A DNA stretch of 64,000 nt from Chachezhania sediminis (lineage in GTDB: Bacteria; Pseudomonadota; Alphaproteobacteria; Rhodobacterales; Rhodobacteraceae), in the NCBI RefSeq assembly GCF_009765275.1, contig NZ_VOPH01000004.1, positions 315,810 to 379,809 on the forward strand, in the 5' to 3' direction. Shown one piece after another: positions 9,189 through 15,372 of the stretch. Made by a program: the position numbers and the translations under genes. Within the stretch, counting starts at the first letter, position 1. Every line of letters begins with the position of its first letter. The notes beneath the pieces were generated by a model that made no database searches, was not told where the DNA came from, and saw only the letters and a list, made by a program, of their open reading frames with translations.

Positions 9189-10766
9189 TCAGATGTTGAA
9201 GCCCGCGAAGCGAAGGCCCTGCAGGAACATCTCGCGGTGGTCGTCCCGCCGGAACGGGTAGGAGGCGATGATGGCATGCGGATCCAGCGTCTGGCCCAGA
9301 TCCGCCAGCCGCCGCGCGGCCGCCTGTGCCGCATCGCGGTTGCCGGTCAGGCCGGACAGGACCATCCGGCGCTGCAACGCGCGACCATAGGCCGGGTCCC
9401 AGCTTTGCGCCCGGGCCAGATGGTCGTCGGCCTCGGCCCAGTTGCCGTCCAGCATGTGCCACAGGCCCAGGTCCGCCTCGATCACCGCACGGTAGGGATA
9501 GACGGGATCGACGCGGCAGATCCGTTCCTGGTAGGTGCGCGCCTTGGTGGGATCGCCGGAAAAGCCTGTGATGCAGCCGCCGAAGTGATAGTTGATGGCG
9601 GCGCTGGGGTTCAGTTCCAGGGCCTTTTCCACGTGCAGCAGGGCGCGGTCATGGGTGCGGTTGGACCAGAGCTCGCCCACCGCGGTCAGCGCATGGGCGA
9701 TCCAGGCGGTCTGGTCCACTTCCAGCGCGCGACGGGCGGCCTCCAGCGTGGGCTGGAAGGCCTGGCCACTGTCGGCCACCGAAAATCCCGACATCGCCTG
9801 GTGAAAGCGGGACATCGCGATCAGCGTATAGGGCAGGACCCAGCCGGGCGCGTGATTGGCGGCCGCCGTGGCCAGTGCCTCGGCCTCGGACAGGACGTCG
9901 GGGTTGCGCTGGCTCAGAAGCCAGGCCGCCCGCATCGACATGTCCCAGGCGGTCAGGTCGGCGGGCGCCTTGTGCATGATCCGCCGCGCCTCGGCCCCTT
10001 CCAGTTCGGGCGAGACGGCGGTGGCGATCAGGGCTGCGACCTCTTCCTCCAGGTCCAGCACGCCTGCCACATCCTGCGCGATGCGGTCGGCCCAGATCTG
10101 GGTGTCGGTTTCGGTATCGGTCAGCGTGACCTGCACCTTCAGGCGATTGCCCAGGTTCCGGATCGATCCCGACACCAGATAGCGCGCCTTCAACGCCGCG
10201 CCGATATCGGCGGCGCTCAGGGGGCTGCCCCGAAACCGCGCGGCAGAGGTGTGGGCGATCACCGGGAAATAGCGCCAGGCAGACAGGGCCGCCGACAGTT
10301 CCATCGTCAGGCAGTCCGCCAGCGGCGATGGCCGCCCGTCGGATGTCAGGTCGTCGAAGGGCAGGACCGCCACGGCGGGCCGTTCGAAGCTGTCGGGTGC
10401 GGGCTGGGGCGACGTCGGTGCCAGCGCCGGCGTCTGTGCCGCGACGACGCCCGGCACGATCTTTTGCGCGGCGCCCACGAAGCGCAGGCCGCGGCGCTGG
10501 ATGGTGCGGATGTATTTCTGGGCCTTGCCATCGTCGCCGATGGCCTTGCGCGCATCGCGCACCCGGCTGGACAGGGCCGCGTCCGACACGATCCGGTCGC
10601 CCCAGATCCGGTCGAAGATTTCGTCCCGCGTCACGATCCGGTCGCCGGCCCCGACCAGCAGGTTCAGCAGATCGAAGACCTGCGGTTCGACCGGCACGAC
10701 CTGGCCTTCGCGCCGAAGCTCTGCCCTGTCGGCATCCAGTTCGAAATCGGCAAAGACATAGCGCAT
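9189..10766 (-). CDS. Transcriptional regulator: N-terminal CadC/OmpR-type winged-helix DNA-binding domain + C-terminal TPR-like region
   Basis: MRYVFADFELD...RIVTRDEIFDRIWGDRIVSDAALSSRVRDARKAIGD...YIRTIQRRGLRFVGA is a trans_reg_C winged helix. It is followed by about 400 aa of repeat-like helical sequence. The internal Met at 10764-10766 was chosen as start; the upstream ORF extension is low-complexity. Confidence 0.65.
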   Translation of the reverse strand: MRYVFADFELDADRAELRREGQVVPVEPQVFDLLNLLVGAGDRIVTRDEIFDRIWGDRIVSDAALSSRVRDARKAIGDDGKAQKYIRTIQRRGLRFVGAAQKIVPGVVAAQTPALAPTSPQPAPDSFERPAVAVLPFDDLTSDGRPSPLADCLTMELSAALSAWRYFPVIAHTSAARFRGSPLSAADIGAALKARYLVSGSIRNLGNRLKVQVTLTDTETDTQIWADRIAQDVAGVLDLEEEVAALIATAVSPELEGAEARRIMHKAPADLTAWDMSMRAAWLLSQRNPDVLSEAEALATAAANHAPGWVLPYTLIAMSRFHQAMSGFSVADSGQAFQPTLEAARRALEVDQTAWIAHALTAVGELWSNRTHDRALLHVEKALELNPSAAINYHFGGCITGFSGDPTKARTYQERICRVDPVYPYRAVIEADLGLWHMLDGNWAEADDHLARAQSWDPAYGRALQRRMVLSGLTGNRDAAQAAARRLADLGQTLDPHAIIASYPFRRDDHREMFLQGLRFAGFNI

Positions 10767-11013
10767 GGCGGCTCCACCCCGGGCCTGCGACAGGGCCGGT
10801 GGACGCAACGTAAACTCAATTCCGCGATCTGGGAACACATTTGGCTGCCCCGGGCGCGCAGACGGGGCTTTCCGGCGCGTTGCAGACAGAAACCACGGCT
10901 TCTCCCGCAATCTGCAGAGGTTCTGCAGATCTCCTCCAAGCAACGGAACCGGGGATGGGCGATCAGTTGGGTACTGATCCACCCTGAACGATCCGACCCA
11001 AGGAGAACCCACA

Positions 11014-11835
11014 ATGAACGTCGCAACCGCCCCCTTGCCCGATCTCGCCGCCGTCAAGGCCAGGCAACAGGCCACCTGGGCCACCGGTGACTATCCCGCC
11101 ATCGGCACCACGATCCAGATCGTAGGCGAAAACCTGGCCGAGGCCATGGACCTGCGCCCCGATGCCCGCGTCCTGGACGTGGCCGCCGGCAACGGCAACG
11201 CCACGCTGGCCGCCGCGCGCCGCGGCTGCAACGTCGTCTCGACCGATTACGTCACCGACTGGCTGAAGGCCGGCATGGCCCGGGCCGAGGCCGAAAAGCT
11301 GACCGTCGCCTTCCGCGAGGCCGATGCCGAAAACCTGCCCTTCGAGGATGGCTCCTTCGACGCGGTGATGTCGACCTTCGGCGTGATGTTCACGGCCGAC
11401 CAGGATACGGCCGCGGCGGAACTGCTGCGGGTCTGCCGGTCGGGCGGCAAGATCGGCCTTGCCAACTGGACGCCCCAGGGCTTCATCGGCCAGGTCTTCA
11501 AGACCATCGGCAAGCACGTCCCGCCGCCTGCCGGTCTGCGGTCCCCCGCCGAATGGGGCACCGAAGGCCGCCTGCGCGAACTCTTCGGCGCGCAGTCCCG
11601 CAAAATCGACGTTCGGCTGCGCGACTATACCTTCCGCCTGCGCTCGCCCGAATACTGGATCGAAAGCTGGAGCGTCGCCTACGGCCCCATGAACAAGGCC
11701 TTCCAGGCCGTGGGTGCCGACGGGCACAAGGCGCTGGCCGCCGACCTGATCGCGCTGGCCCGTGTCCATTCGTCCTGCGACCGGCAGATGATCGTCCCGG
11801 CACAATATGCCGAGATCGTGGTCCACAAGGCCTGA
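11014..11835 (+). CDS. Class I SAM-dependent methyltransferase
   Basis: Motif I VLDVAAGNGNATLAAARRG and post-I acidic residue. Divergent from the wHTH-TPR regulator. Confidence 0.75.
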   Translation: MNVATAPLPDLAAVKARQQATWATGDYPAIGTTIQIVGENLAEAMDLRPDARVLDVAAGNGNATLAAARRGCNVVSTDYVTDWLKAGMARAEAEKLTVAFREADAENLPFEDGSFDAVMSTFGVMFTADQDTAAAELLRVCRSGGKIGLANWTPQGFIGQVFKTIGKHVPPPAGLRSPAEWGTEGRLRELFGAQSRKIDVRLRDYTFRLRSPEYWIESWSVAYGPMNKAFQAVGADGHKALAADLIALARVHSSCDRQMIVPAQYAEIVVHKA

Positions 11836-11973: not shown

Positions 11974-12357
11974 ATGACCACTGCCGTAACGCGTTCCCGT
12001 TCCCTGCCGCTGTTCGAGAAATACGGCGGCATCCGGATGCTTCGGAACGTGATCATGGACTTCTACGACCGCGTCCTGGACAGCGACACGCTGGGTCCCT
12101 ATTTCGACGATGTCGACATGACCCGGCTGATCGACCACCAGACCAAGTTCTTCGCCATGATGATGGGCGGTCCGGTCGACTTTTCCGACGACCGCCTGGC
12201 CCGGGCCCACGCGTCGATGGCCATCACCCATGCCGAATTCGACGAGATCGCGGCCCTTCTGACCGAGACGCTGACCGCCGCCGGGCTGGAGCCCGTCGAT
12301 ATCGTCACCATCCTGACCTCCGTAGAACGGCGGCGGTCCGTCATCGTCAGGAGATAG
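11974..12357 (+). CDS. Group I truncated haemoglobin (trHbN-like, 2/2 globin)
   Basis: LFEKYGGIRMLRNVIMDFYDRVLDSDTLGPYFDDVDMTRLIDHQTKFFAMMMGGP... matches the trHbN pattern (YDKIGG...VVEDFY.RVL.D..L..FF...M..L...Q..FF....GGP), including the B10 Tyr and the distal/proximal region. 127 aa. Confidence 0.8.
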   Translation: MTTAVTRSRSLPLFEKYGGIRMLRNVIMDFYDRVLDSDTLGPYFDDVDMTRLIDHQTKFFAMMMGGPVDFSDDRLARAHASMAITHAEFDEIAALLTETLTAAGLEPVDIVTILTSVERRRSVIVRR

Positions 12358-12361
12358 GCCG

Positions 12362-13402
12362 ATGTTTCCCGAAACGCTCAGCACCCGCCTTCTGAAATCC
12401 ATCGGCGTCGGTCTCTGCCTCCTGGACAGTGCCAGCCACCGGATCCTCTTCTGCAACAGGACCTTTCAGGGCTGGTTCCCCGACGCCGCCCCGGAAAGCC
12501 CCGTGGCCGCGGTCGTCGAAAGCCTGGGTCCCGAGGCGATGGAAGACGCCATCGCAAGCGGCCAGGTCGAGATCCGCGCCAAGGTCAGGCGCCGCACCCT
12601 GATCCTCGAGGCGCGCGTCGACCGGGCCGAACATGACGGCCGCCAGATGCTGATCCTGGAATGCCAGAACGTCTCGCGCCTGCGCGAGACGGAAGCCATG
12701 ATCGACAGCTACGCCGCCATGGTCGACCGCCGCACCCGCGACCTGGAACGCGAGAAGGTGCAGGTCGAAAAGCTCCTGCTGAACATCATGCCGCGCACGG
12801 TTTATGAGGAATACCGCAGCTTCGGTTCCGTCGCGCCACGCCTGTTCGAACCGGTCTCGGTCCTGATGCTGGACTTCGTGGGCTTCACCGACATGGCGGC
12901 GGCCGCGGACCCGACGGTCACGGTGGCGGAACTGAACGACCTCTTCACCGCCTTCGACCGGATCGGCGAAATGCACGGCTGCGAGCGGATCAAGACCATC
13001 GGCGATTGTTACCTGGCGGTGGCGGGCCTGCCGCATCCGAACCCGGACCACATGCTGTCGGCCGCCCGCTGCGCGGCCAAGATGGTGCGCTATCTCGAAC
13101 ACCGTAATCGCACCCACCAGCACAAGTGGCAGGCCCGGATCGGCCTGGCCTCGGGCTCGGTCGTGGGCTCGGTCGTCGGGATCCAGAAATACATCTACGA
13201 CGTCTTCGGCCCGGCCGTGAACCTGGCCGCGCGACTTCAGGACATTTCCGAACCGATGGAAATCACCGTCAGCGGCCCCATGATCCGCGAGCTGGAGCAG
13301 GAATTCGACCTCGCCTGTCTCCGCACTGAAACCCTGCGCGGCTTCGGCGACACCCAGATCGCCACGATGTCGGACCGCGCGCCCACCGCGGCCGTCGCCT
13401 GA
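12362..13402 (+). CDS. Class III adenylate/guanylate cyclase with N-terminal PAS-like sensor domain
   Basis: C-terminal cyclase catalytic core (VSVLMLDFVGFT, KTIGDCYLAVAGLP, FGPAVNLAARL). The first about 110 aa are PAS-like, followed by a coiled-coil. The AGGAG Shine-Dalgarno overlaps the end of the globin gene; the start is 4 nt after the globin stop. Confidence 0.8.
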   Translation: MFPETLSTRLLKSIGVGLCLLDSASHRILFCNRTFQGWFPDAAPESPVAAVVESLGPEAMEDAIASGQVEIRAKVRRRTLILEARVDRAEHDGRQMLILECQNVSRLRETEAMIDSYAAMVDRRTRDLEREKVQVEKLLLNIMPRTVYEEYRSFGSVAPRLFEPVSVLMLDFVGFTDMAAAADPTVTVAELNDLFTAFDRIGEMHGCERIKTIGDCYLAVAGLPHPNPDHMLSAARCAAKMVRYLEHRNRTHQHKWQARIGLASGSVVGSVVGIQKYIYDVFGPAVNLAARLQDISEPMEITVSGPMIRELEQEFDLACLRTETLRGFGDTQIATMSDRAPTAAVA

Positions 13403-13669
13403 CCCGCGCGCGTCCTCGGCACGGGCCGGTCGACGCCTTGGCGGCGTGCCGCCTCCGGCGGGAGTATTTTCGAAGAGAAGAAGCCAGGGGCGCGCTCCTG
13501 CTTCTCCTCTTTCCCAAATACCTCCGGGGGAGTCGCGCCAGGGGCGCGGCGGGGGCAGAGCCCCCGAACCACGCAGGGACTGCTGCGTCGCTGGAAGTTT
13601 CCGCGCAGGGCGGGGTTTGCCCCGCCGTTTGCGCAAGACGCGGGCCGGCGCGGCGGGGCGTACCCCGCG

Positions 13670-14455
13670 CTAGGCGATCTTGGCCGGCGCCGTGGGGACC
13701 GGCATCGCCTCGACCTGGCGCAACATGTCGATGAAGCCCGCGACCTGGTGATCGGCGGTGGCCGCCCCTTTCTCGGCCGTGGCCAGGGACGCGTCGCCCA
13801 CCGTGCCGTCCGGGTTCAGGTCGGACGCGATCCAGCCGCGGCTAATCGGGCCCGTGGGCGGGATCGGCATCGTCTCGGCCGCGGAGCGGAAGTTGACCGC
13901 CTTCGACATGTCCACCGTGTCAGGGCGGAATTCCAGCATCAGCGAGGTTTCGACATCGCCGCCATGGATACCGAAGCGCAGCTCGTGCGGTGTGTACATG
14001 CCGTCCGGGTGGCCGAAATTGCCCCACTGGCATTTGACCGCCAGCATCCCGGCCTCGACCCGGAGTTCCCGCGACAGGATCGAGATCAGGTCCAGGTTGC
14101 CGCCATGGGAATTCGCTATGACGATCTTCCGGACGCCGGCGCGGGCGACGGAGAGGCCAATCTCGGTCCATGCCGCCAGCGCCGTCGCGGCCGAAAGCGT
14201 CAGCGTTCCGGCGGCCCACAGATGTTCGTTCGACTTGCCGACCGCCATGATCGGCAGGATCGCCAGGTCCAGGTCCGCCGGGCAGGTGGCGCGCAGGCGG
14301 TTCAGCATGCCTTCCGCGATCAGCGTGTCGGTCCCCACCGGCAGGTGCGGCCCGTGCTGTTCCACCGCCGCCGTCGGCAGGATCGCGATGGTCTTCATCG
14401 GGTCCACGGCACCGAATTCGGGCGCGCGGCGCGCGGTCCAGTCCAGGGTTCTCAT
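13670..14455 (-). CDS. Creatininase-family amidohydrolase
   Basis: Creatinine amidohydrolase fold motifs (ILPTAAVEQHGPHLPVGTD, VIANSHGGN, HGGDVETS). Last gene of the overlapping operon; ATGA overlap with the upstream gene. Confidence 0.75.
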   Translation of the reverse strand: MRTLDWTARRAPEFGAVDPMKTIAILPTAAVEQHGPHLPVGTDTLIAEGMLNRLRATCPADLDLAILPIMAVGKSNEHLWAAGTLTLSAATALAAWTEIGLSVARAGVRKIVIANSHGGNLDLISILSRELRVEAGMLAVKCQWGNFGHPDGMYTPHELRFGIHGGDVETSLMLEFRPDTVDMSKAVNFRSAAETMPIPPTGPISRGWIASDLNPDGTVGDASLATAEKGAATADHQVAGFIDMLRQVEAMPVPTAPAKIA

Positions 14456-15372
14456 GGGGCGGGCTCCGTCTTGTAGGTCGCGTCGAGGCGCATCTGAAGA
14501 TAGTCGGCGCCGGTCACGGGCGGGTATTTGGCCGTACCGGTGCCGGGCAGGGCGGTGATCACGCTGTCGGGGTTCGGGTCCAGGAAAAAGGCGATGGACC
14601 GCCGCGCACGTTTCGGCGGCAGCACCCGATGGGGCGTCGAGACATAGATGTCGTTGGTCCAGCGCATCAGGCAATCGGCGATGTTGATCACGAAGGCGCC
14701 CGGCACATGGGGTACATCCACCCAGCCCTGCCCGCGGGGGCGGACCTGAAGCCCGGCCTCGCCATCCGTCATCAGCAGCGTGATCGAGCCATAGTCGGTA
14801 TGGGCGCCGGCGCCGATCTCGTTCGCCGCTCCGGTGCCGGGCGGGTAGGAGAGCAGGCGCAGCGTGGCCAGCGGCGCCGTGAAATGGGGGGCGAAAAAGT
14901 CTTCCTCCAGCCCCAGGTCGCGGGCGATGGCGCGGTGGATATCGACCCCCAGCGTCAGCACGGCGTCGAAATAGGCGGTCAGCGTCGTCCGGAAACCCGG
15001 CAGGTCGGGCCACAGGTTCACCCCCCGAAACCGTTCGCCCGCCACGACCCGCGGATCGTCGGCCGCAAGGTCGAGGCCGATGTTGAACGCTTCCTTCCGG
15101 TCGACCTGGTCGGAGCTGTCGTCCAGGTTCTCGCCCCCCGGCCCGGTCCAGCCGCGGTTGTGGGGGTTGCGGGCGATCGACATTTGCTCCTTTGCCGCGA
15201 CCGGCAGGGCAAACAGCGCATCGCCGGCGGCAAAGGTTCTTTCGATCAGCGCGTCGGGGATGCCGTGGCCGGTCAGCAGGAAGAACCCGGTTTCGCGGCA
15301 GGCCTCGCCCAGGCACGTGGTAAAGACATCCGGGTCGGTGGCGAAGGTGCTCCAGTCCAGGACGGGGATCAT
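14452..15372 (-). CDS. 2OG-Fe(II) oxygenase (isopenicillin-N-synthase-like)
   Basis: H-x-D...H facial triad (AHTDYGSITLL...HRV) and RxS. Start at the internal Met MIPVLDW, preceded by GGAGG. Confidence 0.75.
   Translation of the reverse strand: MIPVLDWSTFATDPDVFTTCLGEACRETGFFLLTGHGIPDALIERTFAAGDALFALPVAAKEQMSIARNPHNRGWTGPGGENLDDSSDQVDRKEAFNIGLDLAADDPRVVAGERFRGVNLWPDLPGFRTTLTAYFDAVLTLGVDIHRAIARDLGLEEDFFAPHFTAPLATLRLLSYPPGTGAANEIGAGAHTDYGSITLLMTDGEAGLQVRPRGQGWVDVPHVPGAFVINIADCLMRWTNDIYVSTPHRVLPPKRARRSIAFFLDPNPDSVITALPGTGTAKYPPVTGADYLQMRLDATYKTEPAP

Follow-up and report, generated by a model that had tools for sequence, protein, structure and literature searches.

A truncated haemoglobin gene and a PAS-cyclase gene of Chachezhania sediminis as a probable split haem-based sensor

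The globin-cyclase gene pair in the window

We analysed a stretch of 64,000 nucleotides (nt) of DNA from the alphaproteobacterium Chachezhania sediminis (contig NZ_VOPH01000004.1, positions 315,810 to 379,809). This whole stretch is called the window below, and positions are counted from its first letter. The subject of the present study is a pair of adjacent genes in the window. The upstream gene encodes a group-I truncated haemoglobin (trHbN), and the downstream gene encodes a protein composed of a PAS domain, a signalling helix and a class IIIa cyclase domain. The positions of the genes and of their features are shown in Table 1.

The spacer between the stop codon of the globin gene and the ATG of the cyclase gene is 4 nt (12358-12361, gccg), and the two genes are read in different frames. 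A first-pass annotation of this DNA had described the two open reading frames (ORFs), the 4-nt spacing and an AGGAG sequence inside the globin gene, and all of the coordinates were correct when they were checked again. The globin was 100% identical to the protein named 'group I truncated hemoglobin [Chachezhania sediminis]' (label P0121), and the cyclase was 100% identical to the 'adenylate/guanylate cyclase domain-containing protein' of Chachezhania sediminis at NCBI.

The terminator-like hairpin downstream of the cyclase gene is a possible end of the operon. Hairpins of this kind were found at three sites against 1.9 expected in shuffled sequences, which is not above the shuffle background. 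Around the operon we found no sigma-70-like promoter, and no riboswitch, RNA element or repeat.

Table 1. Features of the gene pair and of other genes in the window, and loci at which a globin gene adjoins another protein matched by the PAS profile
Feature	Position	Strand	Remark
Class I S-adenosylmethionine-dependent methyltransferase gene (Methyltransf_11/25, UbiE-like)	11014..11835	+	138 nt upstream of globin
Group-I truncated haemoglobin (trHbN) gene, 127 amino acids (aa), ATG start, TAG stop	11974..12357	+	PF01152
Codons of His55 (E10) and Gln56 (E11)	12136..12141	+	Alignment
Codon of His79, proximal haem ligand (F8), invariant	12208..12210	+	Alignment
AGGAG Shine-Dalgarno sequence of cyclase	12349..12353	+	Within last globin codons, 8 nt before ATG
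PAS / signalling-helix / class IIIa cyclase gene, 346 aa, ATG start	12362..13402	+	PF00211
N-terminal PAS domain (aa 1-104), candidate globin docking/receiver domain	12362..12673	+	AlphaFold2, Foldseek
Signalling helix (aa 105-142) and cyclase-transducer-element-like segment EKLLLNIMPRTVYEEY (aa 136-151)	12674..12829	+	AlphaFold2, HNOBA
Class IIIa catalytic domain and C-terminal tail, stop codon included	12830..13402	+	PF00211
Terminator-like hairpin and T-run	13447..13470	+	45 nt past cyclase stop
Na+/H+ exchanger (NhaP) gene, 836 aa, PF00999 and C-terminal PF00027	50665-53175	+	Pfam
L081, PAS-GAF-HisKA-HATPase			Globin upstream, 4-nt overlap
L082, PAS-SpoIIE/PP2C			Globin upstream, 8-nt overlap
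L083, PAS-PAS_7-histidine kinase (HK)-REC-REC			Globin upstream, 28-nt gap
L085, low-GC PAS-cyclase			Globin upstream, 21-nt gap
L086, PAS-PAS_4-HK-REC			Globin upstream, 4-nt overlap
L087, PAS-PAS-Hpt, beside CheX and a receiver			Globin upstream, 2-nt gap
L088, 1118-aa PAS...Hpt...HATPase			Globin downstream, 39-nt gap

Properties of the globin

The globin matched Bac_globin (PF01152) of Pfam with an E value of 2.6e-17 and 63.6 bits (cut-off 21). Its best solved relative was HbN of M. tuberculosis (1idr, E 2.3e-16). The top matches in the PDB were all group 1 proteins (HbN and the Tetrahymena, Chlamydomonas and cyanoglobin structures), and group II globins appeared only at an E value of about 1e-3. 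These results agree with the group-I identity that the first-pass annotation had given to this 127-aa protein. The Protoglobin model matched only with an E value of 0.051, and HNOB, the haem domain of H-NOX, had no match in either the globin or the cyclase.

The residues of the HbN haem pocket could be mapped onto the globin: TyrB10 (33 in HbN) corresponds to Y31, LeuE7 (54) to L52, GlnE11 (58) to Q56 and HisF8 (81) to H79. Residue conservation was judged over 81 orthologues. Y31, L52, Q56 and H79, together with PheCD1 (F44) and the Gly-Gly motifs G18-G19 and G65-G66, were invariant among them. The first-pass annotation had staked its proposal on the haem-binding residues, and these are in place. 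The globin very probably binds haem b through His79.

The subfamily also has a signature of its own, namely invariant Y17, D54-H55-Q56, D109 and R121 and a conserved C-terminal E-x-R-R-x-[LIV]-I-V, and its E-helix motif is D54-H55-Q56-T57-K58. The His at E10 (H55) is invariant in 81 of the 81 orthologues and in all of the seven globins found beside other output proteins (see below). In the alignment it falls on His46 of Synechocystis GlbN, of which the sequence used was identical to PDB 1S69, and on Lys57 of HbN. His46 of GlbN is the sixth (distal) ligand of the iron and is displaced by exogenous ligands. His55 may thus be usable in the same way as an internal sixth ligand, giving a hexacoordinate iron. 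That the residue at E10 can coordinate iron has also been stated in general terms (PMC11904497). At the corresponding position of its H helix the globin lacks a His to which haem could be attached covalently, as it is to His117 of GlbN.

Properties of the cyclase and its PAS domain

The catalytic domain was matched to Guanylate_cyc (PF00211) at aa 161-328 with an E value of 3.1e-39. Six catalytic residues were recognised: D171 and D215 for metal binding, K211 and D280 for specifying adenine, and N287 and R291 for the transition state. All of the six were invariant or nearly so among homologues, and they align with those of C1/C2 of mammalian adenylate cyclases and of Rv1625c/Cya. The best structural match of the domain was M. 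intracellulare Cya/Rv1625c, with 30-35% identity. Since the six residues are conserved, the enzyme should be active, and we predict from its sequence that it is a homodimeric adenylate cyclase whose Lys-Asp pair makes it specific for ATP.

The whole cyclase was modelled by AlphaFold2 with 117 homologues (pLDDT 84.7), and the model consists of a PAS domain, a helix, a short transducer-like helix and the catalytic domain. The PAS strands are at 16-22, 27-31, 68-75, 78-91 and 94-103. The long helix has 38 residues, and the short helix that carries the transducer-like segment of Table 1 is at aa 145-154. The helix and the transducer segment together form the best-conserved part of the cyclase, with a mean pairwise identity of 77%. 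HNOBA (PF07701) matched with an E value of 4e-4 and 20.3 bits (cut-off 23.4), and only the model positions 157-214, which represent the helix, were covered.

The PAS domain was also modelled alone (pLDDT 91.8, pTM 0.81). Foldseek placed this model among short LOV proteins, YF1, YtvA, FixL and DosP, with TM scores of 0.6-0.74, 9-17% identity and a probability of 1.0. By sequence, the domain matched PAS_8 with an E value of 0.06 and 13.7 bits, which is under the cut-off of 21.8. That is, the 'PAS-like' N-domain of the first-pass annotation has a PAS fold according to AlphaFold2 and Foldseek, and its sequence match to known PAS families is weak. The invariant or near-invariant residues of the domain are G17, N32, F35, W38, F39, R77, R78, Q102 and N103. 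No conserved His, Cys or Met was found in it among the homologues. The PAS is unlikely to be a LOV or a haem PAS because it has no conserved His or Cys.

Conservation of the pairing

To define the relatives of the cyclase, one genome per species was scanned; at least 560 relatives were found, and the best 80 (51-74% identity) were analysed. At 80 of these 80 loci the globin gene lies immediately upstream of the cyclase gene on the same strand. This pairing, which the neighbourhood survey proposed in the first-pass annotation was meant to look for, is far beyond chance. The distance from the globin stop to the cyclase ATG was -11 nt at 17 loci, -4 nt at 17, 3 nt at 11, 9 nt at 10 and 4 nt at 9, and all others lay between -10 and 18 nt, except one at 42 nt. 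The loci span several orders of Alphaproteobacteria and are from Paracoccaceae/Roseobacteraceae (Ruegeria, Leisingera, Phaeobacter, Shimia, Tateyamaria and others), from Roseibium, Hoeflea and other Rhizobiales, from Kiloniellaceae, Thalassobaculaceae, Pelagibius and Denitrobaculum, and from Sneathiella. The 42-nt spacer belongs to a metagenome-assembled genome of Denitrobaculum (L038, 5940-6003). It is made of a tandemly duplicated unit of about 21 nt (ggataaagcccggatcg[c/t]a), in which the region around the globin stop codon recurs.

A methyltransferase gene lies upstream of the pair in the window (Table 1), and such a gene is directly upstream at 54 of the 80 genome loci, with 45-74% identity. 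It was found at 0 of the 8 loci with other outputs and at 0 of the 80 metagenome loci described below. We considered it as a third core component and rejected it: because it is absent from all of the 88 more distant loci, we regard it as lineage-specific synteny. No specific NCBIfam assignment was found for the methyltransferase.

One clade of the cyclases (L027-L063, 52-55% identity; e.g. L032:550-4569 and L050:399-4469) has further neighbours in common. An alpha/beta hydrolase gene precedes the trio of methyltransferase, globin and cyclase genes at 32 loci. Farther upstream, on the opposite strand, 28 loci of the clade have a PAS_7-PAS-HisKA-HATPase-REC hybrid kinase together with a protein of about 238 aa. 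These surroundings may represent a larger conserved signalling neighbourhood.

Association of the globin with the PAS domain across different outputs

A profile was built from aa 1-118 of the cyclase and searched against 1.84 billion representatives with a cut-off of E<=1e-3. Only 223 matches were obtained, showing that the PAS belongs to a narrow family, and in none of them did a globin stand ahead of the PAS within one polypeptide. Some of the matches carry GAF-HK, PAS-HK-REC, SpoIIE/PP2C or Hpt/CheA-like outputs instead of a cyclase. Of eight proteins found with the profile whose loci we inspected, seven had outputs other than a cyclase and the eighth was a divergent cyclase from low-GC DNA; a Bac_globin gene was adjacent in seven of the eight (Table 1). 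The seven partner globins showed 38-45% identity to the globin of the window, compared to 30% for HbN and 26% for GlbN, and all of them keep TyrB10, His E10, Gln E11 and HisF8. A fusion of a globin with an output domain in one chain was found neither among 150 PAS representatives nor at about 165 loci.

Two of these loci deserve a separate description. At L088 (3001-6759) the order is reversed, that is, the gene for the partner comes first and the globin gene follows, and this was the only such locus seen. At L087 (1257-4590) the module heads an Hpt (CheA-like) protein in a chemotaxis-like cluster, next to a sigma-54 activator, which suggests a globin input into a Che-type pathway.

We also approached the association from the side of the globin. 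With the motif [ML]x[RK]L[IV]DHQT[KR] as the seed, a scan of metagenomes yielded 276 relatives, and we analysed the best 80 loci among them. At eight of these, less than 150 nt of contig followed the globin gene, leaving 72 informative loci; as some contigs are duplicated, the figures count loci and not independent lineages. The GC content of the metagenome loci with a globin of the DHQT type ranged from 33 to 71%. A signalling enzyme was encoded directly downstream of the globin at 71 of the 72 informative loci, and at 67 of the 72 the downstream ORF matched the PAS profile, mostly at a distance of -4 or 2-20 nt. When 55 downstream ORFs were compared with Pfam, the matches were Guanylate_cyc in 48, HNOBA in 26 (E<=1e-3), GGDEF in 3, SpoIIE in 2 and His_kinase in 1.

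The five remaining loci comprised one cyclase, three GGDEF diguanylate cyclases and one unclear case. The N-domain of the cyclase is a divergent homologue of the PAS (hhalign 84%, E 7.5e-6). At the GGDEF loci (L112, L117 and L139) the globin is followed by a diguanylate cyclase of about 320 aa with an N-domain of about 130 aa, and two of the three have an SbmA/BacA-like transporter upstream. These N-domains may be a second type of receiver.

The results described above can be summarised in three facts: the globin is always a separate protein, its translation is almost always coupled to that of its partner, and it stays with a narrow PAS family while the output changes. These facts together argue for a specific two-subunit unit, and they argue that what counts for the globin is the PAS. 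The first-pass annotation had called the pair an unusual split module. The pair is indeed split; the module is widespread, extends beyond one genome and has several outputs.

Proposed mechanism and its alternatives

We think, with a probability of roughly two in three, that the pair is a split haem-based gas or redox sensor in which the globin is the sensor subunit and the PAS-cyclase is its partner. The proposed mechanism is as follows. The truncated haemoglobin, with Tyr31 (B10) and Gln56 (E11) over the iron, would perceive the signal, and the N-terminal PAS, which appears to have no cofactor, would govern the homodimeric class IIIa catalytic domains via the signalling helix and the transducer element. 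Coupled translation would supply globin and cyclase in nearly equal amounts, and the globin would dock onto the PAS and possibly onto the beginning of the signalling helix as well. Binding of oxygen (O2), nitric oxide (NO) or carbon monoxide (CO), or a change in the redox state of the iron, would then alter the distal pocket and move the E helix; displacement of His E10 is a plausible cause of this movement. The PAS would sense it and pass the signal down the helix, and the synthesis of cyclic AMP (cAMP) would change. The first-pass annotation had proposed contact through the PAS-like N-domain, and this idea has strong indirect support, since the globin goes with that PAS when the output is a histidine kinase, a PP2C phosphatase or an Hpt/CheA-like protein. 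The contact itself, the sign of the regulation and the identity of the signal, whether O2, NO, CO or redox, are inferences.

Several observations weigh against this sensor mechanism. The divergence of the globin correlates with that of the PAS only modestly (partial r 0.37 with the catalytic domain controlled), and shared phylogeny could explain it; this mirror-tree correlation is positive but confounded in that way, and we did not use it as evidence of contact. At L084, a PAS-HK with the weakest PAS match, there is no adjacent globin. The N-domains of the GGDEF neighbours show no significant similarity to the PAS (hhalign 28%), and we did not count these loci as members of the same receiver family. 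Furthermore, TyrB10 and GlnE11 are the residues that HbN of M. tuberculosis uses for NO dioxygenation, which makes an enzymatic role possible.

In such a role the globin would act, for example, as an NO dioxygenase or a peroxidase that removes or produces a molecule sensed by the PAS protein, or that protects the cell, and it would not be a sensor. HbN is its closest solved relative, the Tyr-Gln pair is invariant, and trHbN proteins appear in the literature mainly in connection with NO and O2 chemistry (PMC4256840; PMC3770913). However, the association tracks the PAS domain and not one pathway or output, translational coupling suggests a 1:1 stoichiometry as in a complex, and the neighbourhood has no conserved gene for a reductase or for another detoxification function. 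The PAS, moreover, is without an obvious cofactor for sensing NO or O2. We consider an enzymatic globin rather unlikely on these grounds, and 'NO detoxification coupled to signalling', which was the alternative of the first-pass annotation, is the less likely of its two proposals. A different division of labour would make the PAS the true sensor of haem or a small molecule and the globin a donor, chaperone or buffer of haem. FixL and DosP, which are haem-PAS sensors, are among the structures close to the PAS model, and the globin and the cyclase are co-translated, but the role is very unlikely because the PAS has no conserved ligand residue (His, Cys or Met), and a mere carrier would have no need of a complete and invariant ligand pocket.

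It is also conceivable that the two genes only share an operon, without physical or direct functional coupling, and that their adjacency is inherited synteny. Most of the 80 genome loci are indeed from related marine Alphaproteobacteria, and the upstream methyltransferase shows that plain synteny occurs in this neighbourhood. Against this, the adjacency holds over loci of 33-73% GC, at least five output architectures and one locus of reversed order, while the rest of the flanking genes vary; at the 88 distant loci the globin is kept and the methyltransferase is absent. We regard simple co-regulation as quite improbable, to about the same degree as the haem-donor role. The least probable alternative is that the globin holds no haem and serves as a non-haem adaptor or ligand-binding subunit, like RsbR or photoglobin. 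Non-haem globins are known in signalling systems (PMC8717448), but none of the 81 orthologues departs from HisF8, PheCD1, TyrB10, GlnE11 or the two Gly-Gly motifs, and the pocket residues are also kept in the seven partners of other outputs.

Returning to the globin as a sensor subunit, a more general proposal can be made, towards which the evidence leans by a little. That is, trHbN proteins with His at E10 would be a third class of stand-alone haem sensors in bacteria beside H-NOX and NosP. They would always be separate subunits that dock on a dedicated N-terminal PAS 'globin-receiver', would respond to O2, NO or redox, and would control cAMP synthesis, two-component phosphorelays, PP2C partner-switching, chemotaxis-like pathways and possibly the synthesis of cyclic di-GMP (c-di-GMP).

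Comparison with known systems

Stand-alone H-NOX and NosP proteins are haem sensors that regulate adjacent kinases and diguanylate cyclases (PMC8846402). As in the known partnerships HnoX/HnoK, Hnox1/Lpg1057 and D. shibae H-NOX/Dgc1, a small haem protein is here encoded beside its partner, and one type of sensor is combined with several types of output. The partners of H-NOX and NosP are histidine kinases or cyclases on which the sensor acts by direct contact; for the globin pair, such contact is what we propose. The differences are that the haem protein here is a 2/2 globin (PF01152) and not an H-NOX or FIST fold, that class III adenylate cyclases are its main output, and that the receiver is a specific N-terminal PAS. 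We know of no description of a class III adenylate cyclase as the output of an H-NOX partner.

Soluble guanylate cyclase (sGC) resembles the globin-paired cyclase in its layout, which is a PAS, a long helix or coiled coil and a catalytic domain. Whole-chain structural alignments of 370-389 columns were obtained only with the alpha and beta chains of sGC, at root-mean-square deviations of 12-19 A. In contrast to sGC, the pair contains no H-NOX domain, and its haem module is a separate globin polypeptide. sGC is a heterodimer with a Glu-Cys pair that uses GTP, whereas the globin-paired cyclase is predicted to be a homodimer with a Lys-Asp pair that uses ATP, and the identity between the two is about 20%.

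Globin-coupled sensors such as HemAT, EcDosC, AfGcHK and HemAC-Lm likewise place a signalling output under the control of a globin, and adenylate cyclase is among their outputs (PMC7475203). Their globin is a full-length 3/3 globin of the S family fused at the N-terminus; the present one is a separate 2/2 globin of the T1/N type. Recent reviews ascribe sensing by globins to the unrelated 3/3 S family, as part of single-chain fusions, and list the T1/N globins of bacteria only as single-domain proteins with no sensor role (PMC7475203).

With GlbN of Synechocystis and Synechococcus and with HbN, the globin of the window has the fold, the group and TyrB10, GlnE11 and HisF8 in common, and with GlbN also His E10. 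Unlike these proteins, to which it is 26-30% identical, it has neither a counterpart of GlbN His117 nor the pre-A motif of HbN, and its genomic context is signalling and not nif or detoxification.

A census of sensory inputs to c-di-GMP signalling includes partners of H-NOX and NosP and no truncated globin (PMC8846402), and the paper on the truncated haemoglobin of R. denitrificans deals with a group II globin in the context of nitrogen metabolism. In the searchable literature, with subscription journals mostly outside the search, we found no description of a pairing of a truncated globin with a cyclase or with a PAS. The trHbN, the PAS, the class III cyclase and the principle of the stand-alone haem sensor are each known. 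What is apparently new is their combination, in which a truncated globin would be the sensor subunit, a dedicated PAS its receiver and cAMP the main output.

Other genes in the window

The first-pass annotation had pointed to an NhaP antiporter gated by a cyclic-nucleotide-binding domain as a plausible downstream effector in the same window. Both of its domains were found by Pfam (Na_H_Exchanger 1.9e-46, cNMP_binding 1.1e-12). Its gene lies 37 kb from the pair, and the protein is a possible cAMP effector, the sole link to the pair being the shared window.

Two further genes of the window were noted. At 9189-11084 on the reverse strand, divergent from the methyltransferase gene, a protein of 630 aa is encoded that has an OmpR/CadC-type winged helix (Trans_reg_C, aa 126-201), followed by a long C-terminal part in which Pfam recognised no domain; its annotated start may be too far upstream. 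At 13670-14590, also on the reverse strand, a gene of the creatininase family (PF02633) converges with the cyclase gene. The ORF of this gene is listed as 548 aa, probably from a spurious upstream start in DNA of 65% GC.

Significance

Most truncated haemoglobins of bacteria have no known role in physiology or are assumed to detoxify NO or O2. If the proposal made here is true, truncated haemoglobins would gain their first dedicated signalling role, and a new class of sensor would be added to those known for gas and redox sensing in bacteria. The pair would be a bacterial split analogue of sGC in which a globin takes the place of H-NOX. It would offer a simple two-protein model for the passage of a haem signal along a chain of PAS, signalling helix and cyclase, and in sGC this mechanism is still debated. 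No earlier class III adenylate cyclase system under haem control would then precede it in free-living marine bacteria such as roseobacters, Roseibium and Sneathiella, for which the gradients of O2 and NO on particles and on algal hosts matter.

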